A DNA stretch of 64,000 nt from Mustelus asterias (taxonomy: Eukaryota), in NCBI RefSeq assembly GCF_964213995.1, contig NC_135825.1:12772001-12836000 (forward strand), written 5' to 3'. Numbering within the stretch: position 1 is the first letter of the stretch; each line of letters begins with the position of its first letter. Positions 4,632 to 63,764 of this stretch are shown here, in pieces. Under the pieces are notes generated by a model, which worked only from the letters and a program-made list of their open reading frames with translations, was not told where the DNA came from and searched no databases. Made by a program: the position numbers and the translations under genes.

Positions 4632-4961
4632 GTTCATGTCAATTAACTGGACCCAAGGAGGTTAGTGGCCAATTAGGAGGATCAGTCACTGTGAAATGTC
4701 AGTATGATCTGAAATACAAGGACCATGTTAAACAATGGTGCAAAGGTAATTATTACTACCTGGTTAAATGTCCTGTTGTGGTTTCTACTAAAAAGCCGGA
4801 AGAAGGAAGAATATCACTGACTGATAACAAAACACAAGGGATATTTTCAATAACCATGGATAACCTAATGAAGAGTGATGAAGGGCAATATACCTGTGTG
4901 ATAGAAACACCAACATTTGAATATAATCAACGGATTTCTATTGATTTGAAAGTTTCTCAAG
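4632..4961 (+). CDS. Gene 1 (CD300/pIgR-like inhibitory receptor): Ig V-domain exon
   Basis: Acceptor cccatag|, donor G|gtaaga, phase 1-1, 330 nt open. Translates SCQLTGPKEVSGQLGGSVTVKCQY...KQWCKG...KCPVVVS...GRISLTDNKTQGIFSITMDNLMKSDEGQYTC...DLKVSQ: B/F-strand Cys plus the extra WC..C pair typical of CD300/pIgR/TREM V domains. Confidence 0.93.
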
Positions 4962-5439
4962 GTAAGATGCAAACGTATTTCTATTTAATTTATTCTGCCT
5001 CAATTTAAACATTTTGAAATCAGAAATCCCACCTGTCCAATCAGCGGGCCAGCTTAACCTTGGCAGTGTCACCAATTCCCATGGCCACTGCTGAGGCTAC
5101 AGGGGGAAGGTGAAGGGACTCCATGCTGAGGCCCCATCAAAGAAAACATATTTTTTTAAACCGAGCTGGGGCCTGGTGGGCAGGCCTCAGTAACCCGGGG
5201 CATGCACACTCCATCAGGAACACCCTAGCACGGAGGGGATCATTACTGATTGGTGGGCATCTCCACGGGCCATCTGCAGCCACAGAGGAGGCCTCCCCTT
5301 CCAGTGAAACAACTGGGACAGCAGCCAGGGTTTATCCGGAAGTCTCAACATGTGTTAGCAGCTGCTTCCAATGCCAGAAAATTGCTGATTGCAGCAGTGG
5401 ACAATTAATTGGTTTAATTGCAGAGAGGCCGTGGCACAG

Positions 5440-6330
5440 TTGGAATCTCACTGGAGCAGGCAAACAAAGGGGGTCGTCCGACCTGGCTGTCTGCCCCTCT
5501 ACTACGGTTACATTTGTGGCTGGTTGTCCCTGGACAGGAGCATGCAGTGTCCACAGACACTTCGAGGCCTTCCGTGCTGGTTGGGCACCGCAGGGACTGG
5601 GGTGCCTGATTGACCCCTTTAATCACATTTTAATTTGATGTTTTAAGTTTCATTTGTGCTTTGTTTTTGTTGGATTTAGGATCGCTCTAAGGTGCTGCCC
5701 TTTTGACTTTCTCCCTCAGTTCGTTTGATTTGGTTTAATTGGTTTATACAAAAGAGTTGCAATCACATTGGAGGTTCCCAGTGGAGGTCTCTCTATGGAG
5801 CAGTCCTCCCTTATCATTGGGGACCTGAGGTGGAGGGTGCCGCATGTCGCAGACCCACACAACCTTAGATTGCATCGGTTCATGGATTCCCAAGATGCTT
5901 GTCCTTTGTGTGGCCTTGAGGACCATGCATATATAGGATGCGTTAGACTGCATTTCCTTTTTAGTTATTTAAAATATCTTCTGTTACAGTTTTGTTTGCA
6001 CTTCAGCCCCACGCTCCTGATCGACAGGCACCCGGTGCGGGGAGGGGCAGGGAAGGAGGAGGACCTCCTCATGAACCTGCTCCTGGGCCTGGCCAAACTT
6101 GCCCACAACAGGTCCAGGCAGCAAGCAACAAAGGGGGTCATCCGACCTGACTGCCGCTTAACTGCGGCTACATTCACGGCTGGGTGTCCCTGGAGAGTGA
6201 GCATGCAGTGATCAGGGGCACCATCAAGACCTTCCATGCCCGTTGGGCACCATGGGGACTGGGGTGCCTCATTGACCCTTTAATTACATTTCAGTTTGAT
6301 GTTTTAAGTTACATTTGTGTTTTGTTTTCG
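5440..6330 (+). mobile_element. L1/Tx1-like LINE 3' fragments (two partial copies)
   Basis: CPLCG..H..C knuckle followed by FSPTLLI...DLLMNLLLGLAKLA; the 3' segment is repeated at 5460-5660 and 6110-6330. Confidence 0.65.
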
Positions 6331-6639
6331 TTTAAGGCACTGCGGTGACACAGTGGTTAGCACTTTACTTTACTTTACTTTACCCCTTTAAGGGACTGAC
6401 ACTTTTACTTTGTCCATCAGTTCATTTAAATCAATTAAATTGTTCTATACAAAAGGGTTAGAATCTCGCTGAGCTGGCAATCCAGTGGCCCAGAATATTG
6501 CCCTGGAACTATGGGTTCAAATCAAACCACAGCAGCTGATACAATTTAAACTCAATTAATAAATCTGGAATATAAATCTAGTCTCAATAATGGTGACCAT
6601 GACAACTCTCATCAAATGGTGCAAAATCCCATCTGGTTC

Positions 6640-7095
6640 ATAGAATCAGACAGTGCAGAAGAGACCCTTTGGCCCATCGATTCTGTATCGACACGTGAGA
6701 AACACCTGACTTCCCACCTAATCCCATCTGCCAGCATTGGGCCCATAGCCCTGAATGTGCAAAATCCAGGTACATTTTAAAAGATGTGAGGCAACCCACC
6801 TCTACCATCCTCCCAGGAAGCACATTCCAGACTATCACCACCCTCTGGTGGTTTTTTTCTCACATCCCACCTAAACCTCCTGTCCCTCACCTTGAACTTG
6901 GTCCCCTCGTGACTGACCCTTCAACTGAGGGGAACAGCTTCTCCCTATCCACTCTGTCCACGTCCCTCATAATTTTGTACGCCTCGATCAGGTCACCCTC
7001 TCAGTCTTCTCTTCTCCAAGGAAAACAACCCAAGCCTATCCAACCTCTCATCATAACTTAGATATTCCATCCCAGGCAGCATCCTGGTGAACTTC
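6640..7095 (-). mobile_element. CR1 3' fragment
   Basis: Degraded WNVLPG.MVE..LTSFK motif and CR1 tail. Confidence 0.75.
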
Positions 7096-7504: not shown

Positions 7505-9370
7505 ATAAGAACATAAGAACTAGGAGCAGGAGTAGGCCATCTGGCCCCTCGAGTCTGCCCTGCCATTCAATCAGATCATGGCTGATCTTTTCGTGGACTC
7601 AGATCCCTTACCCGCTCACTCACCATAACCCTTAATTCCTTTACTGTTCAAAAATTTATCCATCTTGCCTTAAAAACATTCAATGCTTCACTGGGCAGGG
7701 AATTCCACAGATTCACACTTTGCTCTGCCACCCACCTTAGTATTATCTGTGAATTTTGACACACTACACTTGGTCCCCAACTCCAAATCATCGATGTAAA
7801 TCGTAAACAATTGCGGTCCCAACACTGAAGAAGTTCCTCCTCAACTCAGTCCTAAAACTGCTTCCCCTTATTTTGAGGCTATGTCCCCGAGTTCTAGTTT
7901 CACCCACCAGTGGAAACAACTTCCCCGCTTCTATCTTATCTATTCCCTTCATAATCTTATATATTGCTATAAGTTTTCTCCTCATTCTTCTGAATTCCAA
8001 TGAGTATAGCCCCAAGCTACTCAGTCTCTCCTCATAAGCCAACCCTCTCAACTCTGGAATCAACCTAGTGAATCTCCTCTGCACCCCCTCCAGTGCCAGT
8101 ATATCCTTTCTCAAGTAAGGAGACCAAAACTGTACACAGTACTCCAGCGTGGCCTCACCAGCGCCTTATACAGCTGCAACATGACCTCGCTGTTTTTAAA
8201 CTCCATCCCTCTAGCAATGAAGGACAAAATTCCATTTGCCTTTTTAATTACCTGCTGCACCTGCAAACCAATTCCTTGAGATTTCTACATAAGGACATCC
8301 AGGTCCCTCTGTACAGCAGCAAGCTGCAATTTTTTACCATTCAAATAATAGTCCATTTTGCTGTTATTCCTACCAAGATAGATGACCTCACATTTACCAA
8401 CATTGTACTCCATCTGCCAGACACTAGCCCACTCACTTAGATTATCTATATCCCTTTGCAGACTTTCAGCATCCTCTGCACACTTTGCTCTGCCACCTAT
8501 CTTAGTGTTATCTGCGAATTTTGACACACTACACTTGGTCCCCAACTCCAAATCATCTATGTAAATCGTAAACAATTGCAGTCCCAACACTGATCCCTGA
8601 GGCACGCCACTAGTCACTGATTGCCAACCAGAAAAACACCCATTTACCCCCAATCTTTGCTTTCTGTTAGTTAACCAATCTTCTATCTATGCTAATACAT
8701 TACCCGTAACACTGTGCACCTTTATCTTATGTAGCAGTCTTTGGTGCGGCACCTTGTCAAATGCCTCCTGGAAATCCAGATATACCACATCCACAGGTTC
8801 CCCATTGTCCACTGCACATGTAATGTTCTCAAAGAATTCCATCAAATTAGTCAAACATGACCTTCCCTTCATGAACCCATGCTGCGTCTTACCAATGAGA
8901 CAATTTATATCCAGATGTCTTAATATTTCTTCTTTGATGATAGATTCAAGCATTTTCCCTACTACAGAAGTTAAGCTAACCGGCCTATAGTTACCCGCCT
9001 TTTGTCTACCTCCCTTTTTAAACAGTGGCATCACATTTGCTGTTTTCCAATCTGCGGGAACTACCCCAGAGTCCAGCGAATTTTGGTAAATTACCACTAG
9101 TGCATTTGCTATTTCTCCCGCCATCTCTTTCAGTACCCTGGGATGCATTCCATCAGGACCAGGAGACTTGTCTAACTTTAGCCCTATTAACTTGCTCAAC
9201 ACCAACTCTTTCGTGATAATGATGATTTCTAGGTTCTCACCTGCCATAGCCTTCCTGTCATCAATATTTGTGTCTTCCACTGTGAAGACCGACACAAAAT
9301 ATCCATTCAATGCCTCAGCCATTTCCTCTTCTCATTTCCAGTTATTACATTCCCCTTCTCATCCTCTAAA
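7505..9370 (-). mobile_element. CR1 ORF2 fragment (RT), disrupted
   Basis: ORFs 8687-9322, 8285-8653 and 7788-8114 ([24 protein letters not shown]). About 100 bp of 8480-8590 is re-inserted at about 7720-7826. Confidence 0.95.
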
Positions 9371-9715: not shown

Positions 9716-9851
9716 GCCAACCACAAAGTTCAACAATAAGCCCGACCACCAGCGCAACAGGAAATACCAAGGCTTCTGTCAACACAACAGGAAATACCAA
9801 GGCTTCTGTTATCACAACTCTCACCATTTCACCCATCCACTTACCCCACAG
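9716..9851 (+). CDS. Gene 1: Ser/Thr/Pro-rich (mucin-like) stalk exon
   Basis: Acceptor ctcttttag|, donor AG|gtaagt, phase 1 to 2. Encodes GQPQSSTISPTTSATGNTKASVNTTGNTKASVITTLTISPIHLPH; phases join the V exon and the TM exon. Confidence 0.85.
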
Positions 9852-12232: not shown

Positions 12233-12575
12233 AGCGGCACGGTAGCACAGTGATGAGCACGGTGGCACAGTGGTTAGCACTGCTGCCTCACAGCATCAGG
12301 GACCCAGGTTCAATTCCAGCCACGGATGACTGTCTGTGCAGAATCTGCAGTTATCCCCGTGTCTGCGTGGGTTTCCTCCGGGTGCTCCGGTTTCCACCCA
12401 CAGTCCAAAGATGTGCAGGTTAGGTGGATTGGCCATGCTAAATTGTCCCTTTGCATCACAGGGACTAGAAGGGTAAATACGTGGGGTCAGGAGATAGGGC
12501 CTATATAGGATTGTCGTCGGTGCAGGCTTGATGGGCCGAATGGCCCCTTCTGTGCTGTAAGTATTGTATGATTCC
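12233..12575 (+). mobile_element. HE1-like V-SINE (CR1-type tail)
   Basis: tRNA-like A/B boxes, V-core GGGTTTCCTCCGGGTGCTCCGGTTTC, GGGCCGAATGGCC tail. Confidence 0.9.
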
Positions 12576-12664
12576 TTCCAAACTCTATCAGGCTGGAATA
12601 GAGCAGGAATGCTGGTCTGGACTAGTACAGCAACACTGTATTTCTCATTTATACGAGATCAGGT

Positions 12665-12972: not shown

Positions 12973-13079
12973 TGTGGAAGCCTGGCATGTGACCCTACCA
13001 ATAGTTATGGTGCTAATTATCCTACTGCTCAGCACCGCTCTTATTCTTTATGTGAAACTAAAGCAGCAGAAGAAAAACG
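12973..13079 (+). CDS. Gene 1: transmembrane exon (uncharged TM)
   Basis: Acceptor ttttacag|, donor G|gtgcgt, phase 2 to 1. Encodes SVEAWHVTLPIVMVLIILLLSTALILYVKLKQQKKN: hydrophobic helix followed by a basic stop-transfer cluster. Confidence 0.88.
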
Positions 13080-14520: not shown

Positions 14521-15084
14521 GAGTGTCTGGAACATTATAATTATAATTTACAATTATTAATGGTAATTAAAATTATAATTTTACTTTACAGGCATTGGTG
14601 CGGAGAGCCCTGCAACCTGCAAGGTGAGATGAGGCCGCGTCAGGGTCACATGGTAGACCCAAAGAGACAATTGACAGTTCTGATTGGATAGATCCTGACA
14701 TGACATTCTGAGCACATGACACTCGGGTCACGTGACTCTGGTCACATGATGTCCAATCATGTGACAAATGCAAACGTGAATGAATTTACTTTATAAAGGT
14801 TTGGTCACCTGTGAGTTTGAACCAGGTGCTGATGTATAAGCAGATCGGAGAGCCAGCAAGTTACTCACGGGCAAGCAGAGAGAGGAAACATAGGACAGGG
14901 AAGGGTAGAAATTGAGAAGAAGGGTGAAATTCACAGAGGGGGAACTGGGTGGGAGGAGCTTTAGTTCCACCATTAACTAGAAATTACTCACTGGAATTGA
15001 CTGGTAACTAATAGTGTTACTGGGAACACTCAGACACCCTCGAGTAAGTGAAAGGAATTTGAATAACTCACTGATAGCTTTCTT

Positions 15085-17420: not shown

Positions 17421-18553
17421 CTTAACCTTGATCCTTGATTCAAGTTCCTCAACGTAAAAAAGAACAACAGATCAGAAGAACAATGGACAACAACAGAACA
17501 TTTGCAGCCCTAATATTTATTAGTTGTGATAAAATGTGTGAGCAGAATTTAATGTCCTTTCCCATGGCAACCATGATGATGGAGGGAATCACGGGGGAGG
17601 CTGGGGTCCCCATTGCCTTCCCCACTTCACTTCCCCCTCCATCTCCCCCTCCCCCTTGATTGAGTCTGAGGCTGGAAAGCTTGGGAGCATTCTTCCTGTC
17701 TATAATAACCCCAGGAGTCGGCTGTGAAGGAGCCGTGCTTTTATTGCACAAAATGAAAATTAAAAATTACCGCAAGCCTGCGGTGAACACAACTGGGACT
17801 AAAAGGTTAATGGATCCTCTCAAGGTCTTGCTTTATGCAAGGCTTGGTATTCGAGCTCCACCTGGTTGGTTAATTATTATTCCCCAGGGAACTTGTATTC
17901 AATGAGACCAATGGGGAGGTTGATTAGTGACTCCCCACGCAGATCATGGAGGCTGTCCCACTGCTGATTGAGGCTCTTCTAGTAGTCATATCCTGCCACC
18001 CAGCGCCTAGTGGGGTGATTGCCATGCGGGGAATGTGACAAGCAAAACTGTGCAGGGCTGCGTGTGGGCTTGGGAAGGGGGGGCGCGGTGGTTGTTGTCC
18101 TTATTTAAAGGCACTCAGTGCCTGATGGAGGGGCCAGCTGAGAGTTACCCACCTATCCTTGATGCCCCTCCCCCCATGACCCCCGACCTACTCCTGCCAT
18201 CAGTCATCCATGTGCTGGGGTCCAGCTATTATACTTGGCCACAGGTGTAGGTCTTACCAATAACAGCCACCACTTCCCCAGTGCATAGCCATTCAATAGA
18301 GCTGCCAGCATCTGATTGGCTGGTAGCTCTCGGCAGATGGCACTTCCGCCCCTGGGGTCCTTGATCCCAGGGAAGGCTCTTCACCGTCCAGTTAAGTGCC
18401 TGACTGACACTTCATACAGCAGCAAAGAGGATTCTTGCTGGGTCAGCAGCAGATGGGAGAAACACCCTTTGCCTCCATCAAATACCCGCTATGAGTTTGG
18501 TTAACATTGTGCATAACTGTGGTGACAGTTTTCCCTTGTCTCAATTTCCTCAG

Positions 18554-18706
18554 GAAAATCAAGAGGTGACGTATTCCGCTGTGACCGTGGTACCCAGACC
18601 TGACTTGGAAAATACTTACCTTAATCTTCAGGATCTTACAGCTCAAAGAACAGCCAGAAACCAAGACTTTTCGGAAACTGTGGAATATTCTGCAATTCTT
18701 GTCTGA
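18554..18706 (+). CDS. Gene 1: terminal exon with ITIMs
   Basis: Acceptor tttcctcag|, phase 0. Encodes ENQEVTYSAVTVVPRPDLENTYLNLQDL...SETVEYSAILV*, with ITIM VTYSAV, a YLN motif and C-terminal ITIM-like VEYSAI. Confidence 0.9.
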   Translation, partial: ENQEVTYSAVTVVPRPDLENTYLNLQDLTAQRTARNQDFSETVEYSAILV

Positions 18707-19981: not shown

Positions 19982-20539
19982 TCAAAAATATTCAGTGTAA
20001 ATTTGAAACTAGTTACTTAAGACACACAGCACTGATACACAGATATCTGTCTAATTTCATGCATATCATATGGGAGCATTCCAATAACATAAGCCTACTT
20101 TAATATTGACTCTTCTGCAATGTTAGACCATTGACTCCATAGAATCCCTACAGGAGGCCATTCAGCCCATCAAGTCTGCACCGAACACAATCCCACCCAG
20201 GCCCTATTCCTACAAGCCCATGCATTTACCCTAGTTAGTCCCCCTGACACTAAGGGTCAATTTAGCGTGGCCAATCAACCTAACCTGCACATCTTTGCAC
20301 TGTGGGAGGAAACCGGATGATCAACTCACTCCATTTCTCAGTGAATTTATATATCTGATATATCCATGGAGTATTGTTCTAAATAGAATTTTAAAAACTT
20401 GTATTTATACAGAACCTTTCACGGCCTCAGAATGTCCTGAAGCATTTTACATGCAATGTAGTAGTTTTGAAGTATAGAAATATAGTGATTGATTGTCAAT
20501 TACTTATCCTTCGAGACAGCTTACACTTAAGTAGTAAAA

Positions 20540-20900
20540 CAGACAGACACATACTAGTATACACAGATACACAAATACACACAAACAAACAGACACACAC
20601 GCACAAATACACACACACACACACAACTAATATACACAGTCACACACACAAATATACACACACACACTCACCTTAATATACAGTCACACACACACAAATA
20701 TACACACACACATGCACACACTAATATACACAGTCACACACAAATATACACAAAAAGAAAGACAGACACACACAAACAAATATATCCGTGCACACACACA
20801 CACAAATATACACAAACACACACACAGATATACATAAACACACAGGCAGACACAAATATACATACACACCATATAGATAGACACACACACAAATGTATAC
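20540..20900. repeat. Degenerate (CA)n-rich simple repeat
   Basis: Visible CA/TA runs. Confidence 0.9.
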
Positions 20901-22954: not shown

Positions 22955-24480
22955 TAACATAGAAACATAGAAAAACTACAGCACAAAAACAGGCCCTTCG
23001 GCCCCACAAGTTGTGCCGAACATATCCCTACCTTCGAGGCCTCCCTATAACCCTCCATCCTATTAAGTCCCATGTACTCATCCAGGAGTCTCTTAAAAGT
23101 CCCTATTGAGTTTGCCTCCACCACCACTGACGGCAGCCGATTCCACTCGCCCACCACCCTCTGTGTGAAAAACTTCCCCCTAACATTTCCCCTGTACCTA
23201 CCCCCCAGCACCTTAAACCTGTGTCCTCTCGTAGCAGCCATTTCCACCCTGGGAAAAAGCCTCTGAGAGTCCACCCGATCTATGCCTCTCAACATCTTAC
23301 ATACCTCTATTAGGTCTCCTCTCATCCTACGTCTCTCCAAGGAGAAAAGACCGAGCTCCCTCAGCCTATCCTCATAAGGCATGCCACTCAATCCAGGCAA
23401 CATCCTTGTAAATCTCCTCTGCACCCTTTCAATCTTTTCCACATCTTTCCTGTAATGAGGCGACCAGAACTGAGCACAGTACTCCAAGTGGGGGCTGACA
23501 AGGGTCTTACATAGCTGCATCATTATCCCCGGACTCCTAAACTCAATCCCTCGATTGATAAAGGCCAGCACACCTTACGCCTTCTTAATCACCTCCTCCA
23601 CCTGCAGGGCCGATTTTAGAGTCCTATGGGCCCGGACCCCAAAGTCCTTCTGATCCTATACAGCACTAAGAGTCTTTCCCTTTATATTGTACTCCTTCAT
23701 CCCATTTGACCTGCCAAAATGGACCAATACGCATTTATCTGGGTTGAAGTCTATCTGCCACTTCACCGCTCAGTCTTGCATCCTATCTATGTCCCTCTGT
23801 AACTTCTGACATCCCTCCAGACTAACCACAACCCCACCAACCTTCGTGTCATCGGCAAACTTACCAACCTATCCCTCCACTTCCTCATCTAGGTCATTTA
23901 TGAAAATGACAAACAGCAAGGGTCCCAGAACAGATCCCTGGGGCACACTACTGGTGACCGACCTCCATTTAGAAAAAGACCCATCTATACCCACTCTCTG
24001 CTTCCTTTGGGCAAGCCAGTTCTGGATCCACAGGGCAGCAGCCCCTTGGATCCCATGCCCTCTCACTTTTTCTAGAAGCCTTGCATGGGAGACCTTATCG
24101 AACGCCTTGCTAAAATCCATATAAACCACATCTACCACTTTCCCTTCGTCAATGTGTTTACTCACATTTTCGAAGAACTCCACCAGGCTCATAAGGCACG
24201 ATCTGCCTTTGACAAAGCCATGCTGAGTATTCTTGAGCATACTACACCTCTCTAAATGCTCATAAATCTTGTCCCTCAGGATCTTCTCCATCAGCTTACC
24301 AACCATTGAGGTTAGACTCACCGGTCGGTAATTTCCTGGGCTATCCCTATTCCCCTTCTTGAAAATAGGAACCACATCCGCAATCCTCCAATCCTCTGGC
24401 ACGTCTCCATCGACGACGCAAAGATCATCACCAGAGGCTCTGCAACCTCTTCCCTCGCCTCCCACAGTAACCTGGGGATA
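22955..24480 (-). mobile_element. CR1 ORF2 fragment
   Basis: ORFs 23869-24465 and 22918-23571 with RT motifs; (CATAGAAA) tail. Confidence 0.95.
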
Positions 24481-24732
24481 ACATGGAATAATACCCTACC
24501 AGCTGGCACTATACCATGCCCATATGCCAACATGCGGCACCAGCCACATATAATTGTAAATATCTTGCAACTTGCAATTACACTTGGGCACTCAAAAATA
24601 ATTCATAGTATTATCCCAGTTTACAATGGTAGGCTTGTCTAAGTTAATGAATTATTTTTCTTGCCCCAGTAACATCTGGTAGAGTTTGCAATGGGCTTTG
24701 CAGGATTATATAATCCTGCCAACTAGTCAAAT

Positions 24733-29218: not shown

Positions 29219-29699
29219 CCCCACGACATAGCCCAGTGTCTCGGTATTGGCATCCGAACAAAGTAGAGCAGACTGCACAGGCTGACTTCAACATGAATGA
29301 AAAACAGAAAGTGCTGGACATGCAGACTCTGCACAGACAGTGACCCAAGCCGGGAATCTAACCTGGGTCCCTGGCGCTGTGAGGCCATGATGTGGAGACG
29401 CCAGCATTGGACTGGGGTCAGCACAGTAAAGAAGTCTCACAACATCAGGTTAAAGTGCGACCAAATAAACCTGTTGGACTTTAACCTGGTGTTGTGAGGC
29501 TTATTACTGTGGCAGCAGTGCTAACCACTGTTCTCCTGTCCATATCAGAATTTGTTGCTGCAGCCAAGATTGGAACCAATTGAACTGAAATGAGGCAAAT
29601 CTGAGGTTAAAAGAATAAACTGGGAACAAGAAGGGAAAGTGCAGCAGCTGAAAGTGTTTCTTTGAAATGAAAAGCCTCGAGCAGCATGTTTTGTGCGTT

Positions 29700-30900: not shown

Positions 30901-30944
30901 TCTTTGAATTTGAAAGAATTAAACTGTTGGCATTTGTTTAAAGC

Positions 30945-31415
30945 TATTTATTAATGTCACAAATTGGCTTACATTAACACTGCAATGAACTTACAGTGAA
31001 AATTCCCCAGTCGCCACACTCCGGCACCTATTCAGATACACTGAGGGAGAATTTAACATAATGGACCTAACCAACACGTCTTCTGGAGTGTGGAAGGAAA
31101 CCGGAGCACCCGGAGGAAACCCGCGCAGACACAGGGAGAATGTGCAGACTCCGCACAGATAGTGACCCAAGCCCGGAATCGACTTGGATCACTGTCTCTG
31201 CGGAGCCTGCATGTTCTCGCTGTGTCTGCGTGGGTTTCCTCGGTTCTCTAGTTTCCCCCCACAGTCCGAAGGACATGCTGGTTCGGTGCATTGGCCATGG
31301 TAAATTCTCCCTCAGATTACCTGAACAGGAGCCAGAGTGTGGCGACGAGGGGGTTTTCACAGCAACTTCATTGCATTGTTAGTGTAAGCCTACTTGCGAC
31401 ACTAATAAATAAAGA
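30945..31415. mobile_element. Two head-truncated V-SINEs in inverted orientation
   Basis: Minus copy 30945-31180 abuts plus copy 31185-31415; both have the alternative GTAAGCCTACTTGTGAC-type tail. Confidence 0.8.
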
Positions 31416-35048: not shown

Positions 35049-35079
35049 CTTGAGGTATTGTTGGAAACTTCTGAATTTC
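35049..35079 (-). CDS. Gene 2: 31-nt stalk micro-exon
   Basis: Acceptor acaatag|, donor AG|gtaaga, phase 1 to 2. Encodes GNSEVSNNTSR; the only exon I found that links D2 (phase 1) to the TM exon (phase 2). Confidence 0.72.
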
Positions 35080-41801: not shown

Positions 41802-43601
41802 CCTTGGAAGATGAGAGGGGGGATTTAATAGTGGAAAATGAGGAAATGGCTGAGACTTTAAATAAGTTCTTTGTGTCGGTCTTCACGGTGGAAGACACAA
41901 ATAGTTTGCCGAATATTAGAGATCGAGAGTTGGTGGGAGGGGAGGTCCTTAATATAATTACTGTTACTAAGGAGGTGGTGCTTGGTAGACTAATAGGACT
42001 GAAGGTAGACAAGTCCCCGGGCCCGGATGGAATGCATCCCAGGGTACTGAAAGAAATGGCTGAGGTAATAGCAGATGCGTTAGTAGTAATTTATCAAAAT
42101 TCGCTGGACTCTGGGGTAGTGCCGGCTGACTGGAAAACAGCTACTGTTACGCCGCTGTTTAAAAAAGGAAGTAGACAAAATGCGGGTAACTACAGGCCGG
42201 TTAGCTTAACGTCCATAGTTGGGAAGATGCTAGAGTCCATTATTAAAGAGGAAATAACAGAGCACCTGAATAAGAATGGTTCGATCAAGCAGACGCAGCA
42301 TGGATTCATGAAGGGAAAGTCGTATTTGACGAATCTACTGGACTTTTATGAAGATGTCACTCGTGCGGTTGACAGAGGGGAACCGGTGGATGTGGTGTTT
42401 TTAGATTTCCAGAAGGCGTTCGATAAGGTGCCTCACAAAAGGTTGCTGCAGAAGATTGGGGTACACGGAGTTAGGGGTAAGGTGTTGGCGTGGATTGGGG
42501 ATTGGCTATCTAACAGGAAGCAGAGAGTTGGGATAAATGGGTGCTTTTCTGATTGGCAGTTGGTGACCAGTGGCGTGCCGAAGGGATCGGTGCTGGGGCC
42601 TCAATTGTTTACCATTTACATAGATGATCTGGAGGAGGGGACTGAATCTAGGGTATTCAAGTTTGCTGATGACACGAAGGTGAGTGGGAAAGCGAATTGC
42701 GTGGAGGACGCGGAAAGTCTGCAGAGAGATTTGGATAGGCTGAGCGAGTGGGCGAAGATCTGGCAGATGGAATATAACGTTAGCAAATGTGAGGTTATCC
42801 ACTTTGGAAGAAATAATAGTAATTTGGAATATTATTTAAATGGAGAAAAATTACATCGTGCGACTGTGCAGAGGGACCTGGGGGTCCTTGTGCACGAATC
42901 GCAAAAACTCAGTCTGCAGGTGCAGCAGGTGATCAAGAAGGCGAATGGAATGTTGGCCTTTATCGCGAGGGGGATAGAATATAAAAGCAGGGAGGTCTTG
43001 CTGCAACTGTACAAGGCACTGGTGAGGCCGCAACTGGAGTACTGTGTGCAGTTTTGGTCCCCTTATTTGCGAAAGGATATATTGGCCTTGGAGGGAGTGC
43101 AGAGAAGGTTCACCAGGTTGATACCGGAGATGAGGGGTGTAGCTTATGAGGAGAGATTAAACAGATTGGGTCTGTACTCGTTGGAGTTTAGAAGGATGAG
43201 GGGTGATCTTATAGAGACATATAAGATAATGAAGGGGCTGGATAGGGTAGAGGTGAAGAGATTCTTTCCACTTAGAAGGGAAACCAGAACTAGAGGGCAC
43301 AGCCTCAAAATAAGGGGGGGCAGGTTCAGAACAGAGTTGAGGGGGAACTTCTTCTCTCAGAGGGTAATGAATCTCTGGAATTCTCTGCCCATTGAAGTGG
43401 TGGAGGCTTCCTCGTTGAATATGTTTAAATCCCGGGTAGAGAGTTTTCTGATCGATAAAGGAATTAGGGGATATGGGGAGCAGGTGGGTAAGTGGGACTG
43501 ATTCGCTTCAGATCAGCCATGATCTTGTTGAATGGCGGGGCAGGCTCGAAGGGCCAGATGGCCTACTCCTGCTCCTATTTCTTATGTTCTTATGTTCTTA
43601 T
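41802..43601 (+). mobile_element. Young CR1 LINE, 565-aa RT ORF
   Basis: RT motifs, (TTCTTATG)n tail; flanked by a 28-bp direct repeat at 41774-41801 / 43602-43629. Confidence 0.97.
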
Positions 43602-44871: not shown

Positions 44872-45192
44872 CTGAGAAAACCTTCAGTATTATAACATCT
44901 GAAATATGTATTTCGGGTAGAGGTCCACACCAGTATGTTCCTGTATCTGTCTCCTGAAGTTGTTGTATGGTTACAGAAATGTTACCATTGGTATCAGCGA
45001 TCGATGTTCTTCCATCAACATTCCAACCTCTGTCTCCGTCAATGCTCGATATCAGATTGCAACAGTTTTTTGAAGTTTCCTTACACCACCAGATTTCTCG
45101 GTGTTTTTGCTGTGTTGCCTGTGGACATTCCACAGTGATGGTTTCTCCCACTGCAGCTTTCATCACTATCGAGGCAGTTTGTGTCCATAAAA
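44872..45192 (-). CDS. Gene 2: Ig V exon D1b (tandem duplicate of D1a)
   Basis: Same acceptor/donor context as D1a, phase 1-1, 321 nt, open. LWTQTASIVMKAAVGETITVECPQ...IWWCKETSKNCC...LQETDTGTYWCG...ILKVFS. Confidence 0.9.
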
Positions 45193-45744: not shown

Positions 45745-46048
45745 TATTTATTTATGAATTGTCACAAGTAGGCTTACATTAACACCGCAATGAAGTTGCT
45801 GTGAATATCCCCGAGTCGCCACACTCCGGCGCCTGTTCGGGTACACTGAGGGAGAATTTAGCATGACCAATGCACCTAACCAGCACATCTTTTAGACTGT
45901 GGGAGGAAACCTGAGCACCCGGAGGAAACCCACACAGACACGGGGAAAACATGCAGACTCCACACAGACAGTGACCCAAGCCAGGAATTGAACCCAGGTC
46001 CCTGGTGCTGTGAGGCAGCAGTGCTAACCACTGTGCCACTGTGCCATC
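45745..46048 (-). mobile_element. V-SINE, alternative tail subfamily (also 47162-47455 plus; 51088-51397, 52045-52332, 55495-55762, 58020-58310 minus)
   Basis: tRNA-like head and V-core followed by ...GGCGAC.AGGGGATTTTCACAGTAACTTCATTGCAGTGTTAATGTAAGCCTACTTGTGAC tail. Confidence 0.85.
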
Positions 46049-46260: not shown

Positions 46261-46296
<36 letters not shown>

Positions 46297-46715
46297 CGTG
46301 CGGGCGTGAAAGAGAATGTGTGTGAGGGAGAGAGTGAGTGTGAGAGAGAGAGTGTGTGAGGGAGAGAGTGAGTGTGAGAGAGAGAGTGTGTGAGGGAGAG
46401 AGTGAGTGTGAGAGAGAGTGTGTGTGAGGGAGAGAGTGAGTGTGGGAGAGTGTGTGAGGGAGAGAGTGAGTGTGAGAGAGAGTGTGTGTGAGGGAGAGAG
46501 TGAGTGTGAGAGAGAGAGTGTGTGCATGTGTGTGTGTGTGGAGAGAGTGAGAGAGAGTGAGAGAAAATTAGAGTGCGTGTGTGATTGGGAGAGAGAAGAA
46601 GAGAGAGATAGTGTGTGTGTGTGTGTGTGTGTGTGTGCGGGAGTGAGAGAAGGTGTGTGAGCAAGAGAGTGAGAGAGAGTGTGTGAGAGGGAGAGTGTGT
46701 GTGTGAGAGAGAGAC
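46260..46715. repeat. Compound (GT)/(GA) microsatellite with 26-28-bp higher-order units
   Basis: Repeated gtgtgagggagagagtgagtgtgagaga. Confidence 0.93.
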
Positions 46716-50112: not shown

Positions 50113-50439
50113 CTGAGAAAACGTTCAGTAATATAGCATCTAAAGCATGGATACTGTTTTGTCCTTGAGGTCCACACCAGTATGTTCCTGCATCTGTCTC
50201 CTGAAGTTTTGTTATGGTTACAGAAATTTTACCATTGGTATTCGCGATCGACATTCTTGCATCATCATTGCTGACACTGTGTCCGGAAGTGCTCACTATC
50301 GAATTGCAATAATTATATGAAGTTATCTTACACCACCAGATTTCTTGGTGTTTTTGCTGTGTTGCCTGTGGACATTCCACAGTGATGGTTTCTCCCACTG
50401 CAGCTTTCATCACTATCGAGGCAGTTTGTGTCCGTAAAA
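50113..50439 (-). CDS. Gene 2: Ig V exon D1a
   Basis: Acceptor ccaacag|, donor G|gtaaga, phase 1-1, 327 nt. LRTQTASIVMKAAVGETITVECPQ...IWWCKITSYNYC...ISVTITKLQETDAGTYWCG...LLNVFS. Confidence 0.92.
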
Positions 50440-52890: not shown

Positions 52891-52930
52891 TTGATATCAA
52901 AGTGAGGAGCAGCAACTCGGTGAACCTCAT
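52891..52930 (-). CDS. Gene 2 (CD300/pIgR-like activating-type receptor): leader exon
   Basis: Kozak-like ggaccATGA; encodes MRFTELLLLTLIS, then phase-1 donor A|gtaag. Joined to the next exon it gives signal peptide MRFTELLLLTLISILRTQTA. Confidence 0.85.
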
Positions 52931-55131: not shown

Positions 55132-55495
55132 GGGCGGCACGGTAGCACAGTGGTTAGGGCGGCACGGTAGCACAGTGGTTAGCACTGCTGCTTCACAGCT
55201 CCAGGGTCCCGGGTTCGATTCCCGGCTCGGGTCACTGTCTGTGTGGAGTTTGCACATTCTTCTCGTGTCTGCGTGGGTTTCCTCCGGGTGCTCCGGTTTC
55301 CTCCCACAGTCCAAAGATGTGTGGGTTAGATTGATTGGCCAGGTTAAAAATTGCCCCTTAGAGTCCTGGGATGCGTAGGTTAGAGGGATTAGCGGGTAAA
55401 TATGTGGGGTGGGATTGTGGTCGGTGCAGACTCGATGGGCCGAATGGCCTCCTTCTGCACTGTAGGGTTTCTATGATTTCTATGATTTCTATGAT
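55132..55495 (+). mobile_element. HE1-like V-SINE with duplicated 5' end
   Basis: GGGCGGCACGGTAGCACAGTGGTT x2, then full SINE and (TTTCTATGA)n tail. Confidence 0.92.
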
Positions 55496-58400
55496 AAAGT
55501 TTATTTGTTAGTCACAAGTAAGGCTTACATTAACAGAGCAACGAAGTTACTGTGAAATTCCCCAAGTCGCCACACTCTGGCGGCTGTTTGGGTAAACTGA
55601 GGGAGAATTTAGCACGGCCAATGCACATAACCAGCCCGTCTTTCTGAATGTGGGAGGAAACCAGAGCACTCGGAGGAAACCCATGCCGACACGAAAAGAA
55701 AGTGCAAGCTCCACACATACAGTGACCCAAGCCGGGAATCGAACCCGGGTCCCTGGCTCTGTTGCAGTGTTAAATTAAGCCTGCTTGTGACATTAATAAA
55801 TAAACTTTAAATAAAATTTTAAACTTGAAACTCAAGCTTGAATGAAGTAAAGATTTAAGAATTGGATGCAATAAAGATGAAGGGAGTTCCGATAAAATGA
55901 TGTTTAAAGAATTGGATAAAAGGTCATTGCAGTTGTCTGGAAGATTTTGATATATGAATTAGCTTAGCAGCAAGGCAAACAAATATTTACCGCAGTGAGG
56001 TGGAGAACAATAGGGTATAGAATTGTAAAACTGAGGAAGAGGTATGTTCAAAGTGGAGACATATGAAAGCGGGTCACACTTACATGCTAAAAGCATGGCT
56101 TCTAAGGTGAGTCCTATAGAGATTGTGAGATCAAAATGGAAGTATGATATGTCAGCAACAGGGTGCTGGTGAGTGGTTAAGATCATCTTCACGCCCAGCT
56201 GGTAAGAGAAACTCTCCGGAAAGCAGCATTCTGTTCTAGCCCCAAAGCAGATCTGGGCTCAAAGATATCCTGAACATTCCTTAAATCTTCAACTTCACCC
56301 TGAAATTCCCGTAGTCACCACAGTTTGGGTCAATGCACCAAACTAGCACGTCTTTCAGACTGTGGGAGGAGTACCCGAAGGAAACCCACGCAGGCACGGG
56401 GAGGACATGCAGACTCTGCACAGACAGTGACCCAAGTCGGGAATCTAACCTGGGTCCCTGGCGCTGTGAGGCCATGATGTGGAGATGCCGGCATTGGACT
56501 GGGGTCAGCACAGTAAAGAAGTCTCACAACATCAGGTTAAAGTGCGACCAAATAAACCTGTTGGACTTTAACCTGGTGTTGTGAGGCTTATTACTGTGGC
56601 AGCAGTGCTAACCACTGTTCTCCTGTCCATATCAGAATTTGCTGCTGCAGCCAAGATTGGAACCAATTGAACTGAAATGAGGCAAATCTGAGGTTAAAAG
56701 AATAAACTGGGAACAAGAAGGGAAAGTGCAGCAGCTGAAAGTGTTTCTTTGAAATGAAAAGCCTCGAGCAGCATGTTTTGTGCGTTTGTCACCACTAGAG
56801 GGTGGAGTGGCTCGATTCAATGTGAACTCATTTGTGGAAGTGGAGGATTTAACTCAGCAAAGGTTACCAGCCCCAACAACAGAGCAGCTTCAAGCAATAA
56901 CTAGCCCGGTGGGACTCACTGTGAGGAAATGGGCACAACACACTGAGGAACTAGAAATACTGGCTGAGGAACTTGGCCTCAACTGGAACAGGCAGAAGAC
57001 ACAAGCCTGACACGGACCAGGTTACCCTCGGCAAGATTCAGCTGGAGGAGCAGAGGCAAGAGGTAGAGTTCCAGGCAGGGAAGGAAAAGGGGGATTCCAG
57101 GAAAGAGAGTTGGAGTGAGCCTTCCCGCTGGAGAAGCTTGAGGATGAATTACCAGCACCAAACGAGAGGGAACCAAAGCAGATTGAAGCAGCGAGGGAGA
57201 AATTGTCTTTATCCAGGAGAGATACCGCTTGACTGGCACCACATCCACAAACACCCACTCCCCCCAACACCGACGCTCAGTAGCAGCAGTGTGTACCATC
57301 TACACAATACACTGCAGCAATTCACCAAAGATCCTTAGACAGCACCTTCCAAACCCACGACCACTTCCATCTAGAAGGACAAGGGCAGCAGATACATGGG
57401 AACACCACCACCTGAAAGTTCCCCTCCAAGCCACTCGCCATCCTGACTTGGAAATATATCGCCGTTCCTTCGCAGTCGCTGGGTCAAAATCCTGGAATTC
57501 CCTCCCTGACAGCATTGTGGGTCAACCCACAGCACGCGGACTGCAGCGATTCAAGAAGGCAGCTCACCACCACCTTCTTAAGGGCAACTAGGGATGGGCA
57601 ATAAATGCTGGCCAGCCAGCGACACCCATGTCCCACGAATAAATTAGAAAAAGACACCACTGGTAATTTAATCTCCCCCGGAGCTCAGAGACACACTTTG
57701 ACCTCTCGAAGTATTTCTGATTCACCCCTAGGTTTGACGATGATGCTGTGGAAACCTCCTTCACAGCCTTCGAGAAGCTGGCTGATTGGTTAAAGTGGGT
57801 GGCAGAGACTTGGACTCTCCTGATGCAGGTTGGCTCGTTGGCGAAGTGCCCACAGTTTATTCCAGACTGCCTGCAGAATGCTCTGCAAGATATCAACAGC
57901 AGTGAAGAGCTAGATTGAGCTGATCAGTTAGTACCAGAAGCACCATCAGAGATTTAGGAATTTTGCAAAAAATCCACGCGACCATCCTTGAATTTGAAAG
58001 AATTAAACAGCTGGCATTTGTTTAAAGTTTATTTGTTCATGTCACATTCACACTGCAATGAAGTTAATGTGAAAATTCCCCAGTCGCCACACTCCGGCAC
58101 CAGTTCAGGTACACTGAGGGAGAATTTAGCATGGCCAATACACCCTAACCAACACGTCTTCTGGAGTGTGGGAGGAAACCGGAGCACCCGGAGGAAACCC
58201 ACGCAGACACGGGGAGAACATGTAAACTCCACATAGACAGTCACCCAAGCTGGGAATCAAACCCAGGTCCCTGGCGCTGTGGAGCAGCAGTGCTATACAC
58301 TGTGCCACTGGAGGGTGCGAGCTCTCACAACTGACCGCTTGTCTGAGGGATTAAGTGAAATAATCCTTTTGCAGGATTTCAAAAACCTCCTCTCGTCCAA

Positions 58401-59544
58401 CCCTAAAGCTCATGTGGAGGAACAAGGAGATTCCAAAGCCAGAGGAGCAGCCACCCTGCCCAGTGACAACGAATTGATTCACAACCTCCTCACTCAGAGT
58501 GAAGCTGGATTTAATAATTCCCACAAGCTCGAGAGAGATGAGGTGGAGGTGGATGAAACAGAATCAATCTCCAGAGAACAGGAGAGCAGGGAAGAATAAA
58601 CAGACCGATTTGCCACTGTTCAAAGAAGGAACATTAATGGATGAAGTGCTTGGGAAACCATCAAGAGCAGTCATATGGCTTCTGGTGAACTGTGGGTTCA
58701 TGGAGTGTCCAGCTTAATTCTGCAATGCTGGAAAGATTTGGACTTCACAGGCTGTTGGAGGACAGCGCCTACACGATGCAAATTAGAGCTTCAAGAACTT
58801 CTCGTGGAAGCCTTAGTTTAACCCTTTGATTGGTGCTTCTGCAACCCCTTAGTTACATTGTTCTGTTTCTGGTCTATGTATAAATTTTCCAGCCATTCCC
58901 CCAATGGGATCCTCCGGCCCTGTCATGGTGACCAGTCACGGCGCGATCCCAGGGGCGGTAGGTGTGGTGCATCCAAAGCACTGCAGACATTGGCGGGACT
59001 GGACGATCCCACCAACAGCCAATGGCAGACCACCTCCATCGCCAGAAATATGACACTTATTTGCCACGCGATGTTGGGCAATTAATTATTTTTAAATCCT
59101 TGTGAGACATTTGAGTTCAACTCCTGCATGTTGTCCTCAGTGGGTTGTGAAGGTGCATTGTTGGGTTGAGTGAGTTTAGAAATTTGAACTTTGCCCTGTG
59201 ATATTTTAGTGGGTAATTCTACACAGACTTTTATTTCCCCCGTGGTTTTCACAAGGTGCTGTTTGTCTTTGGGTATGGCATCTCCCCTTCTCCACTTACC
59301 TCAGGGAGGGATTTTCCCCCAATCTATTCCATGTTCCCTGGGACATTACTGCCCTCAGGCGTCAGCCAGGTTTTGCTGAACCCTCTGTGGTGCTACAACC
59401 GGGTGAGGCATCTCCATCAATTTGTGTCTGCCCGCTTGGGAATTCTCTTGGGAACCTTCAAGAACTTTCCAGGGAGCCCTTTTGCCAACACCGTATGATT
59501 TGTTATGCTTTCAGTTTGCATCTCTGAAACCTTTGGGATGAGTC

Positions 59545-60700
59545 GGGGGTGATTCTCCCCAAAAATATCGAAATGTTGAATTCACGTAAAAACTGGAGCA
59601 AATCCCGCTGGATTTTTCAGCGGGAGTTTCCAAATGAATCTCCCACATTGTGCATTGCAGAGTGCACTCGCATGAATCACACTGAAAATCAGTGGGCGGT
59701 GCCTATTCCCGTTGGAGAGGCCGGCAGTGTAGAGCTGAGCGGGCCACTGTGCATACGCTGATTGGTCAGAGCAGAGATTGATGCATCTGTCGTAGTCCCG
59801 CACTGCCGGCCGCCTGATTGCTGGCCAGCCCCCAACAGCCCCCTCCCACCCCCTCCCACCCCCCCACCCCCCCCCCCCCCCCCCCCCCGCCCCCCACCCC
59901 CCCACACCTGCCGCCCATGGCCCAATTGCTGGCCACCCCAACATGCTTGGACCAGGCTCGAACCACCACTCCCCCCACCCCCACTCAGTCCCGGCAGCCC
60001 CGATCTCCTGATCCATCCCTGTTCCGCCCCTCCCCGCAGCCCCGACACCCCCTCCCCGCAGTCCTGTCCCTCTCTCTGCAGCCCCGACCCACCCAGCAGG
60101 CTTCCCCCTCCCACCCTGCTGGCCAGCCCCAATAGCTGGCCTCCCTCCCTCTGTCACTCAGCCTATAGAGGAAAGTGGCAACGCGACCCCCCACCTTCAC
60201 AGATCGCCCCTCCCTCCCCACTGAGGTCCCCCCCATCAGGCCCCACCCCCAATAGGCCCCTCCCCTTGTCCCTGCTCTATGCCCGGTGAGCAGTGCTGAG
60301 AAGCCCCCTGGGCATGGCACTTTGCCACTTGGGCATTTCCAGGGGCCAGGTTGGCACTGCCAATATGGCAATGCCCAGGGGGAACCCCCCCCCCCCCCCG
60401 CCACTGCACCCGATCCTGTGGGGGGCCTCGATGGCTGCTCTTCACTTGAGTGGGTCGGGCCACCGGCTCCCCTCAAGTGGGGAACGATGCTAAACCCGGC
60501 TGGAGTGAAATACTCCTGGCAGGGGGGGTGAGAGGCTGATTTTAAATATATTTAAATGAGGGTCTGCAGACATTATGCAACTGCCCGATTTCCGACGCGG
60601 AGCTGACTGCACCAAAACCCCGGCTACGGGAGATGCGCAGCGGCCGTGACGCCCAGTGAGGAGCCCCAGAAACTGCCTCTGCTCGAGTCTCCCAGGTGCC
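59545..60700. repeat. GC/poly-C-rich interspersed repeat (related segments at about 18740-19715)
   Basis: Poly-C tracts and shared motifs (TTGGCACTGCC, AATATATTTAAATGA-like); possibly a non-autonomous DNA element. Confidence 0.45.
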
Positions 60701-60902
60701 CGGGTTCAATGCCGGCTTGGGTCACTGTCTGTGTAGAGTTTGCACATTCTCCCTGTGTCTGCGTGGGTTTCCTCCGGGTGCTCTGGTTTCTTCCCACAGT
60801 CCAATGATGTACAGGTCAGGTACATTAGCCATGCTAAATCGCCCCTTAGTGTCAGGGAGTTAGCAGGGTAAATAAGTGGGTGTGATAGGGATAGGGCCTG
60901 GG

Positions 60903-61589
60903 TGATGTAGGAGGGAAATAAAGCGAGTTGAGCCTTGGAGACTGTGTTGAACTTCAAGGAAAGTTTTTATTCCGCATGCATGAGGGAGAGCTGGACTCCG
61001 GCCTGAAATCTCAGGTTTCCTGCCAGTCCTTCTCTGCCCCGATAGGTTGGTACTGGTTAATATACTTTTTCAAGTCACAAAGGTTTACATTAGCATATTA
61101 ATTCCTTGAGTTGGATACAAGATGGTTCTTCTAATCTTGTTATGCAGACTGCATTGTGAAGTACATCATCGTTAATCAGTTCTTTGTCGGTTCCGTTTAC
61201 CCGATTATAATGTGAAAGCGCTGTATTTGCTCAACTGATTTGCACTGAATCGTTCCCCCCCCCTCTGCTCGATGATCGTGTTTTACAGAAGACAATATCC
61301 TCCCTGGACTATATGGAGCCTGGCTGTCTTCATGCCGGTTCTCCCATTGTTGTGATAATTCGGAACGATCTCCTGCACATCAGAAGTTGATGGCACGCGT
61401 TAATTGTTACCTGTCGGCAGAGCAGGCCTCGAGCTGTCTGCATTAACCCTTTCCTTCCCTCTGATGAGGCCTGGCTCTCTGGGCTTGCTCTATGTAGCCC
61501 TGCATGTATTATACTGAAATTAAATAAAATATGAATGAACATATCCATTAAAATATAAAAGACACAATGCCCGATATTGTGCTACAACA
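60903..61589 (-). mobile_element. Probable solo LTR inserted into a V-SINE (SINE spans about 60700-61665)
   Basis: Termini TGATGTAG...CTACAACA; the SINE sequence resumes (gtgggattgtg) after it; minus-strand AATAAA near 60965. Confidence 0.6.
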
Positions 61590-62502
61590 GTGGGATTGTG
61601 ATCAGTGCAGACCTGATGGGCCGAATGGCCTCTTTCTGCACTGCAGGGATTCTATGATTCTATGAAACAAGAGCTTGTAGCTCATCAAAGAAAACACAAG
61701 ACTATATTTGGAAGGTGGCGATAAATAACCACGTGGTGAGGAAGACCAGTTTTTGTGCTGCCCCCTTTTATTCAAAGATTCAGGGCACGATCTTACCGGT
61801 CGTTCACGCCCCACTGCCGCTGCAAGCGAGGATGGAGAATTTGGTGTTCAGCCAAATCTCTGTTCACTGCAGCGGGACCGGAAAATCACGCTGACAAGAA
61901 TGGCGGGAAAATCCCGTCCTCAGTCTTCAGATAACGCCTGGAAAGATGCCAGCTGCAGCAGGTGAGGCAGTGTTATCTTTGCCTTTAAAGACCCAGGGCA
62001 AGAATTCTCCAGCCGTTCATGCCCCGTGGCCGATGTCAGCAAGAACGGAGAAATTGGCCCTCAGCGGGACTGGAAAATCCGAGCTGCAAGCGAGATCGGA
62101 GAATCCAGCTCCAGGTGGCCAAAACTCCAAGTCCATCTGTGAATAAATTTTTGTAGGATGGTATTGGGATCCTGGTCTTCTGTGACTTTTAGGGGATTAA
62201 ACTTTAAAACTTAGACATTTGTGACCATGGCAAAAAACAACTTGACTCCTTAAAATAAAAATATCAAGAAAGTTTATCTATTTTTTATTAGAATAAAAGG
62301 AGTTTGCACACAATTTCTGGAGGCAGTACAAAGCATTTCAGATTGTCATAAAGTATAAAATACTGCAATATTGCAAAGTAACTTCTCAAAGCAAGTGGGA
62401 ATATTCTGGACATTCGTGTAGGAATTAGTCAATCTTCCGAGCAATCTTCGAATCAAGCTCTGATCCATTTATGTTCTGTGGTTGAGGTTTCCACATAACC
62501 CA

Positions 62503-62552
62503 TCATTTGCTCACCTGGGGAGCTGAAGGAGAAATTAATTTAAGCAACTGGA
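62503..62552 (-). CDS. Gene 3: candidate terminal exon
   Basis: Identical to 31715-31764 and in the same context. Confidence 0.38.
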
Positions 62553-63657
62553 CTGTCGAAAATGGATGAAGTGAAATACTTTGAGAGACACTGGCTGAAA
62601 CATAGGCGAAAGAATGGTTGGGTATATCCTCACATAAGTGCTGAAGTGTGTTTGCCATAATCTCAAACAGTGATATTGTTCAAGTTTCCTGGGGTAGGGG
62701 GAACTTTCTATTTTGCGTGCGGTGCCCATAGCCCTGGCGCCCATCTTGGGGTTCCAGGTTCTACAATGCAATATACTTAGTGGCACTTTCCGGCCCGCTC
62801 GCCCCAAGACCAGAAAACCCCGCCCGAAGTCATCTGCTCTGATTCCCACGGCGGGCCAGACAGGAAAATTCCACCAACTGTTTCTGATCCAGGAACACTG
62901 CTGGTGTTCTTTTATCCATGTTCCAAGTCAGATTGGATTCTTAAGGGGCTTGACAGGGTAAATGCTGAGAGAATGCTTCCCATCATGGGAGAGTCTAGGG
63001 CCAGAGGGCATGGTCTCAGAATAAAGGGGCACCAACTTAAGACTGAGATGAGGAGGAATTTCTTCTCTCAGAGGGCGGTGAGTCTTTGGAACTCCTTGCC
63101 ACAGAGAGCTGTGGGGGCAGAGTCCTTGAGTATATTTAAGACCGAGATAGATAGATTTTTGATCAGTAAAGGAATCAAGGGTTATGGGAAAGGGCAGGAA
63201 AGTGGACGGAAGGAATGTTGGGAACAGCCATGATCCTGTTGATTGGTGGAGCAGGGTTGAGGGGCCGAACAGCCTTCTCCTGTTCCTGTTTCTTATGGTC
63301 TTATGGCCACCTTTGTCCACAAGCGTGCATTTTAAATAAACATTGAATGAAACTGAGTGCTTTGTATCCACTGCCTACTTGGAATTTTCCCATCTTGGAC
63401 TCCCATGTGTAACTGAAAAACTGCAGATGAACTGACATTTTATCCTTTCTATTAACAAACATAAAATTCACTCCAGCAGTTCTTGTTCTAACACTGGCCT
63501 GGTGATAATGGTTCATTCGGTTCGATTTCTCGAGGAGGAATCATTTTCTTGTGGATTTTTTTGCTGTGTTTTTTCAGCAACTTTCAAAGTGCCTCAGCTT
63601 TTAGGTTGAAGTTAAATATCTATAAATATTAGAGGAAACAGATTTAAAATATTATAC

Positions 63658-63764
63658 CTGGGTCTTTTGCAAAATGTGCATAGCACGTGACTGAAACAGT
63701 GCAAGCAACCAGAGCGTTAAAGAGCAGCCAGCGGAATATCGCCCATATCTCCAACAGAACGTCT
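63658..63764 (-). CDS. Gene 3 (paralog of gene 2): transmembrane exon; upstream exons lie beyond the window
   Basis: Near-identical to 32880-32986 with the same splice sites. DVLLEIWAIFRWLLFNALVACTVSVTCYAHFAKDP. Confidence 0.83.

Follow-up and report, generated by a model that had tools for sequence, protein, structure and literature searches.

The question raised by this locus is whether sharks carry inhibitory and activating leukocyte receptors of the CD300 and polymeric immunoglobulin receptor (pIgR) class that operate as a paired-receptor family, and which receptors would then partner which. The DNA is a stretch of 64,000 nucleotides from Mustelus asterias (hereafter the window; coordinates are positions within it), in which three receptor genes were recognized, gene 1 on the + strand and genes 2 and 3 on the − strand. 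With a probability of about 0.8, we take the locus to be a slice of a multigene cluster of modular CD300/pIgR-class leukocyte receptors that would work like a paired-receptor family. Genes 1 and 2 are already annotated in RefSeq and are not a new discovery, and receptors of this kind are known from cartilaginous fish, so the gain is comparative detail rather than a new system. The analysis adds a pattern of cassette sharing seen across species, likely pairs and an adaptor prediction, together with exact, chromosome-anchored models for a family of activating and inhibitory receptors in the oldest antibody-bearing lineage.

Exon anatomy and the class of the V domains

Four immunoglobulin (Ig) V exons and three transmembrane (TM) exons were located by a six-frame motif scan. 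An initial annotation, made from the sequence alone, had reported three genes with phase-consistent exons, and this holds: all 14 exons are in phase, with AG/GT ends and zero internal stops, every intron is GT-AG, and the models match the database proteins P0004 (gene 1) and P0014 (gene 2), both RefSeq predicted models with automatic names. Polyadenylation hexamers are present 3' of all three genes. The exon anatomy of genes 1 to 3, at the coordinates given below, is confirmed as real.

The gene 1 exons were read off the DNA independently of P0004 ("CMRF35-like molecule 8 [Mustelus asterias]") and, when joined, equal its residues 15-265 exactly; the leader sits before the window start and hence outside it. 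On the + strand, with phases 1/1/2/1/0, they comprise a V-type Ig exon (4632-4961; Cys 22/36/46/88; Pfam V-set 61 bits; V domain 100% identical to P0004), a Thr/Ser-rich stalk exon (9716-9851; phase 1 to 2), a TM exon with an uncharged helix (12973-13079; 107 nt, phase 2 to 1), a small cytoplasmic exon (14592-14623; 32 nt, phase 1 to 0) and a tail exon ending in a stop (18554-18706). The single V domain and neutral TM helix first ascribed to gene 1 are thus both present. Of the three tail motifs originally listed, VTYSAV and VEYSAI match the pattern of the immunoreceptor tyrosine-based inhibitory motif (ITIM); TYLNL, which lies between them, is a YxxL only and fits no ITIM, ITSM (switch motif) or ITAM (activation motif) pattern. 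Two ITIM matches within 50 amino acids occur by chance in six six-frame segments of the window, so the motif pair by itself is weak evidence, and support comes from conservation of the tail exon among relatives: of 14 displayed tails of the inhibitory type, 13 retain both ITIMs.

A 30-bp tandem duplication inside the gene 1 stalk exon (9755-9818, +) is common to P0005, a paralogue outside the window, and is absent in other sharks. At the tail exon (18530-18560, +) relatives begin three codons earlier; the AG is missing there and an in-frame AG 9 bases downstream is used. The 32-nt cytoplasmic exon is about 7 codons shorter than that of relatives, and the frame is preserved, as with the shifted tail acceptor.

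Gene 2 consists of a leader, three V domains, a stalk, an Arg-bearing TM and a 13-residue tail, and its joined exons are identical to all 390 amino acids of P0014 ("polymeric immunoglobulin receptor-like [Mustelus asterias]"). All lie on the − strand: the leader exon from the ATG (52891-52930; 40 nt, phase 1), the first V exon (50113-50439), the second V exon, a duplicate of the first (44872-45192), the membrane-proximal third V exon (36819-37145), the stalk exon (35049-35079; 31 nt, phase 1 to 2), the TM exon with a W-x-x-x-R-W motif containing Arg360 (32880-32986; 107 nt, phase 2 to 1) and the last exon with 3' untranslated region (31496-31734; coding 31734-31715, 20 nt; hexamer at 31501). 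The last exon was adopted from RefSeq, and the initial gene 2 model had carried one exon absent from RefSeq. A candidate stalk exon at 36329-36264 (−) was dropped, being absent from P0014 and from all 197 proteins compared; it has AG/GT ends and an open phase-1 frame 3' of the third V exon, and could be a rare alternative stalk exon. A phase-1 acceptor 5' of the gene 2 and 3 TM exons, with donor read-through, was likewise dropped, since the 31-nt stalk and 20-nt last exons reproduce P0014.

Only the TM exon of gene 3 (63658-63764, −; same Arg, two residues different from gene 2) and its last exon with 3' untranslated region (62284-62522, −; coding 62522-62503; hexamer at 62289; 98% identical to that of gene 2) fall within the window, the remainder lying beyond it. 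Identification of gene 3 with P0012 was rejected, as 33 of 36 TM-exon residues match. Genes 2 and 3 had been placed tail-to-tail with gene 1 on the opposite strand; the strand is right for both and the arrangement for gene 2, and gene 3 stands in tandem with gene 2. The gene 2 3' block (29316-33077) has copies at 56403-58258 (95%) and 62198-63855 (93%), which form the gene 3 3' block. A segment of about 3.9 kb 3' of gene 3 (58258-62198), absent from the corresponding block 3' of gene 2, includes G/C-rich sequence at 59839-59903, with a long run of C.

The V domains belong to the CD300/pIgR/TREM class. All four V exons score above the Pfam V-set cut-off (E 1e-16 to 6e-11), and all four domains have the second C-C' cysteine pair (Cys about 22/36/43-46/88) together with the D-x-G-x-Y-x-C motif. 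For each of the three V exons searched against the PDB, the best single-domain match is a CD300 protein: CD300lf for the gene 1 domain (66 bits, against 41 for pIgR D4), CD300a for the first gene 2 domain (50 bits) and CD300c for the third (48 bits, against 28-33 for pIgR D1). pIgR leads the PDB lists only by a score summed over five domains. The gene 1 domain was modelled with AlphaFold (predicted local distance difference test score 90), and CD300 entries take Foldseek ranks 1-11. Among 48,161 chains, the nearest fold is mouse CD300lf (Z 19.0, root-mean-square deviation 1.5, 105 aligned), followed by teleost pIgR (Z 16.5), human pIgR D1 (15.8), CD300a (15.5), TREM2 (14.7), NKp44 (14.0) and a T-cell receptor V domain (13.6). 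Atlas look-alikes are CMRF35-like and pIgR-like clusters, at 0.93-0.97. The shark origin and CD300/pIgR-class V domains proposed from the bare sequence are borne out by the identity to P0004, the PDB matches, Foldseek and the fold ranking. The motif given for CD300 is YWCR (PMC3031540); the shark domains read QWCK, WWCK, WWCK and FLCK, with W/L-C-basic retained and the Tyr lost. The single V domain of a strict CD300 is found in gene 1 and not in gene 2, which has three.

Signalling ends and V-domain lineages

Paired receptors are defined by near-identical ectodomains with opposite signalling ends (PMC12310515). The V domain of gene 1 is 89% identical to P0005. For gene 2, identity to P0016, which has an ITIM tail, is 74, 78 and 90% across the three V domains. 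P0005 and P0016 are encoded elsewhere on the same chromosome, beyond the window. Other near-identical ectodomains with opposite ends are P0012 and P0016 (up to 99%) and examples in Heterodontus (95%) and Carcharodon (98%), so the defining ectodomain likeness is present at family level. The proteins P0004, P0005, P0012, P0014 and P0016 are all encoded on one record of 58,715,561 bases, and the M. asterias family numbers at least six genes: genes 1-3 and those of P0005, P0012 and P0016. Domain number per protein ranges from 1 to 8 (2, 3, 6 and 8 among multi-domain forms), some RefSeq models being gene fusions. P0001, P0002, P0003 and possibly P0012 are fusions of neighbouring genes with two TMs and an internal leader. 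In P0002 an Arg-TM gene is fused with an ITIM gene, the V domains of the two being 98% identical; such models show gene adjacency but are annotation errors as proteins.

The window V domains fall in three clades (SH-like approximate likelihood ratio support 95-99): A (gene 1), B1 (first and second domains of gene 2) and B2 (third domain of gene 2). Each of these lineages contains activating and ITIM members across sharks, and a further tree group is seen only with ITIM-poor tails. Both trees were quick trees on 110 columns, the first of 118 domains including 10 unnamed proteins and the second of 66 named domains, from which unnamed rows, three isoforms, four birds and the goldfish were dropped. 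An approximately unbiased test rejects a single clade of activating domains (p 2e-126); with three V lineages this result is largely trivial, and the test followed inspection of the first tree. The activating end is common across lineages: that of gene 2 is 69% identical to its equivalent in a Heterodontus protein of type A. A and B types occur on equal-length records in four of the six species having both; the other two are not assessable. Named sharks contributed 21 activating domains; the same species also has an ITIM domain for 20 of them, and in 18 of these 20 cases that ITIM domain is closer than any domain of another species. For such species-wise grouping, gene conversion and recent duplication would fit equally well.

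Several points weigh against this account of pairs and lineages. The RefSeq model P0005 has no TM, and its activating role rests on a last exon resembling that of gene 2 (75% over 16 amino acids). For two of the 20 activating domains the relation is the opposite, both exceptions being between two Scyliorhinus species. The 20 domains are also non-independent, including repeats in P0012, two isoforms and one fused model.

Diversification is also visible within gene 2, whose first two V exons derive from a 1.2-kb duplication. The duplicated exons are 86.6% identical (278/321) and the introns flanking them 95.0% (248/261) and 92.5% (234/253) (exons versus introns, Fisher p=7e-4). The exons (dN 0.171 and dS 0.091, nonsynonymous and synonymous divergence) have diverged more than their own introns, which suggests diversifying selection on a binding face in this single exon pair; 22 of the 29 residue changes are at positions 38-62 and 91-105. 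The bootstrap interval of the difference between the nonsynonymous and synonymous proportions, pN-pS, touches zero (-0.012 to 0.14), a point on the other side.

On the cluster reading, the genes are modular, with each V-domain lineage joined to either an inhibitory or an activating end. Engagement of gene 1 would lead to phosphorylation of both ITIMs, recruitment of SHP-1/SHP-2 and damped activation; genes 2 and 3, which have no signalling tail, would pair with an ITAM adaptor through the Arg near the outer helix end. Gene 1 would work together with a paralogue of type A, for instance P0005, and gene 2 with P0016. Each species would duplicate, swap and diversify its ectodomains, as pathogen pressure would lead one to expect. 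CD300 and PIGRL proteins bind membrane lipids or microbial surfaces, and we would guess at similar ligands here.

The transmembrane arginine and alternative readings

As first described, genes 2 and 3 have an intramembrane Arg, which sits in a W-x-x-x-R-W helix, and a short tail, whose 13 residues contain neither ITIM nor ITAM. Nine of the 29 named elasmobranch proteins, from six species, carry the W-x-x-x-R-W motif. We aligned the TM regions of 10 proteins selected by that motif (seven named and three unnamed). The uncharged run extends from Arg-5 to Arg+17, which makes the Arg residue 6 of 23, and the Arg and both Trp are invariant across the 10 rows, as selection by the motif would favour. 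An N-terminal TM Arg is associated with Fc-gamma and a central Lys with DAP12 (PMC1440944). By this rule, a partner of the FcR-gamma/CD3-zeta type is predicted for gene 2. Of the adaptors initially proposed (FcR-gamma, CD3-zeta and DAP12), the first two remain candidates and DAP12 seems the least likely.

It is unlikely that the Arg-TM genes instead couple to DAP10 or DAP12, or that the Arg snorkels to the membrane surface and leaves signalling-inert decoys, partly secreted via TM skipping. A plain hydropathy window on gene 2 alone does put the Arg at position 10, near the centre, but the family alignment starts the helix five residues before the Arg, with the three motif residues invariant in its motif-selected rows. 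CD3-zeta-like chains exist in sharks. A 2014 survey reports no FcR-gamma or pIgR homologue in sharks (PMC4016189), which counts against an FcR-gamma partner, and the adaptor may therefore be CD3-zeta or something else; type I DAP12 partners, for their part, use Lys (PMC1440944). The decoy version also draws on TM-exon skipping, which in genes 2 and 3 would leave the last exon (31734-31668 and 62522-62456, −) read in another frame as an open end of 22 residues. This end matches those of TM-less RefSeq models in Mustelus and Scyliorhinus, such as P0005 and P0017, and points to possible secreted forms.

Even less probable is that birth-and-death evolution has left at least one of the three genes as a remnant without expression. 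In favour of this are the repeats that make up about half of the window, gene 1 cytoplasmic exons that are shorter than those of relatives, the incompleteness of genes 1 and 3 within the window, and a weak TM donor (GTATAA) in genes 2 and 3. Against it, the 14 exons have neither stops nor frameshifts and are all GT-AG, a polyadenylation hexamer follows each gene, and RefSeq models the genes as coding. A switch of gene 2 to a long ITIM tail, which would have undone its activating assignment, was checked, and the window contains no such alternative tail. Neither searches with 29 named relatives as queries nor self-BLAST turned up another ITIM tail, an additional V exon or a decayed copy of an exon in the window.

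It is highly improbable that gene 2 encodes a genuine pIgR or Fc-mu-type receptor that binds and transports or senses shark polymeric immunoglobulin. The RefSeq name is pIgR-like and pIgR is top in full-length PDB scores, but these are five-domain sums, and single pIgR domains score 11-33 bits against 48-50 for CD300. The pIgR D1 loop takes part in immunoglobulin binding, and the loop before KYWC is not conserved in the alignments to human pIgR D1. The C-C' cysteines are seven residues apart, as in pIgR domains (PMC9321927). According to the same source, pIgR is a single-copy gene with 2, 4 or 5 domains and a long cytoplasmic tail, 51 amino acids in a teleost pIgR; gene 2 has three domains, a tail of 13 amino acids and a TM Arg, and belongs to a multigene family of variable domain number (2, 3, 6, 8). 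No shark clade firmly joins the bird PIGR domains, and by the features tested gene 2 is not a pIgR.

Just as improbable is a pairing of genes 1 and 2 with each other, as inhibitory and activating readers of one ligand: they are adjacent and convergent, with opposite signalling ends, a shared V subclass and TM exons that are both 107 nt and phase 2 to 1, but the gene 1 V domain is only 30.3, 29.7 and 35.1% identical to the three of gene 2, the two genes fall in separate well-supported clades, and far closer partners are encoded on the same chromosome record. By near-identity of ectodomains they are not each other's pair, and of the paired-receptor locus first proposed, the ITIM and Arg-TM ends stand and the pairing of neighbours does not.

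Relation to known receptor families and other features of the window

Skate MDIRs are described as multigenic activating/inhibitory receptors resembling CD300, TREM/TLT and pIgR, with accessions ABC86796.1, ABC86797.1 and ABC86799.1 for MDIR2-4 (PMC3031540). The M. asterias cluster is probably the shark counterpart of this family, judging by architecture: both are multigene activating/inhibitory CD300/pIgR-like families of cartilaginous fish. The clearnose skate MDIRs (modular domain immune-type receptors), the work of Cannon et al. in 2006, reportedly have one to six Ig domains in several subfamilies and occur in a charged-TM form, ITIM forms and motif-free forms, so a modular mix of domain subtypes and numbers with either signalling end would be common to both. 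Their domains are said to have been termed I- or C2-set, whereas those of M. asterias score as Pfam V-set; the species also differ, and M. asterias is known from genomic exons, the skate from cDNA. A literature search that covered few subscription journals found no paper on this shark locus. The initial view that the class is poorly characterised in cartilaginous fish is fair as regards function, but the class is not new, given the skate MDIRs (PMC3031540) and the RefSeq models.

In mammalian CD300 (inhibitory CD300a and CD300f/CLM-1, with activating paralogues), the likeness lies in gene 1, with its single V domain, four core Cys, stalk, TM and ITIM tail, and nearest sequence and fold matches. 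The differences are the three V domains of gene 2 and the QWCK, WWCK and FLCK that replace YWCR. Activating CD300s carry a central TM charged residue, in contrast to the N-terminal Arg of gene 2. In teleosts, pIgR-like genes with two or three domains form expanded clusters (PMC4016189, PMC9321927), and the Atlas look-alikes bear the names of these PIGRL/CMRF35-like clusters, but the lone goldfish protein in the tree joined no shark lineage and had long branches. pIgR, FCMR and FCAMR share the V subclass, second disulfide and tandem V domains; they differ in lower single-domain scores, and the shark genes have no D1 loop motif, have no long sorting tail and are not single-copy. Xenopus XFLs have an N-terminal TM Arg, combinatorial joining of domains and TMs and lineage-specific diversification (PMC2413239). 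These traits, together with the short tail, are shared by the FcR-gamma-coupled receptors of the leukocyte receptor complex and the XFLs on the one hand and the shark genes on the other, although the ectodomains of the former are C2-type (PMC4016189) and unrelated.

A far-reaching extension, which we consider very unlikely, is that the cluster, on one chromosome across sharks, is the living ancestral locus of CD300, pIgR, FCMR and FCAMR, with two interchangeable signalling cassettes, each opening with a 107-nt phase 2-to-1 TM exon, swapped among old V lineages. A multi-domain member such as gene 2 would then be the missing shark antibody receptor, binding IgM, IgW or IgNAR and signalling via an FcR-gamma/CD3-zeta-like adaptor. 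The models make it possible to test which ITAM adaptor serves the N-terminal TM Arg in sharks, whether CD300-type ligand sensing arose before bony fish, and whether shark immunoglobulin is bound by a member of the family; the 2014 survey found no shark pIgR or Fc receptor (PMC4016189).

LINE reverse transcriptase open reading frames aside, no further gene was found in the window besides genes 1-3, and an Rfam search of it gave 0 matches. Much of the repeated sequence is LINE reverse transcriptase. LINE-type open reading frames (Pfam RVT_1) lie at 37746-40016 (+), 41771-43498 (+), 1070-2302 (-), 8690-9331 (-) and 23872-24495 (-); two of these, of 757 and 576 amino acids, are open and antisense in the gene 2 intron between the second and third V exons. 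Two LINE 3' fragments in opposite orientation, 969-1677 and 34745-34037, match at 99.6% identity across 709 bases, which points to recent retrotransposition; a gene 1 intron holds one of them and a gene 2 intron the other. Two abundant interspersed repeat families of about 300 bases, presumably shark SINEs, occur at many sites (e.g., 12234-12576, 45747-46045 and 55134-55762), and CA-rich arrays are found at 20539-20891 and 46261-46714.

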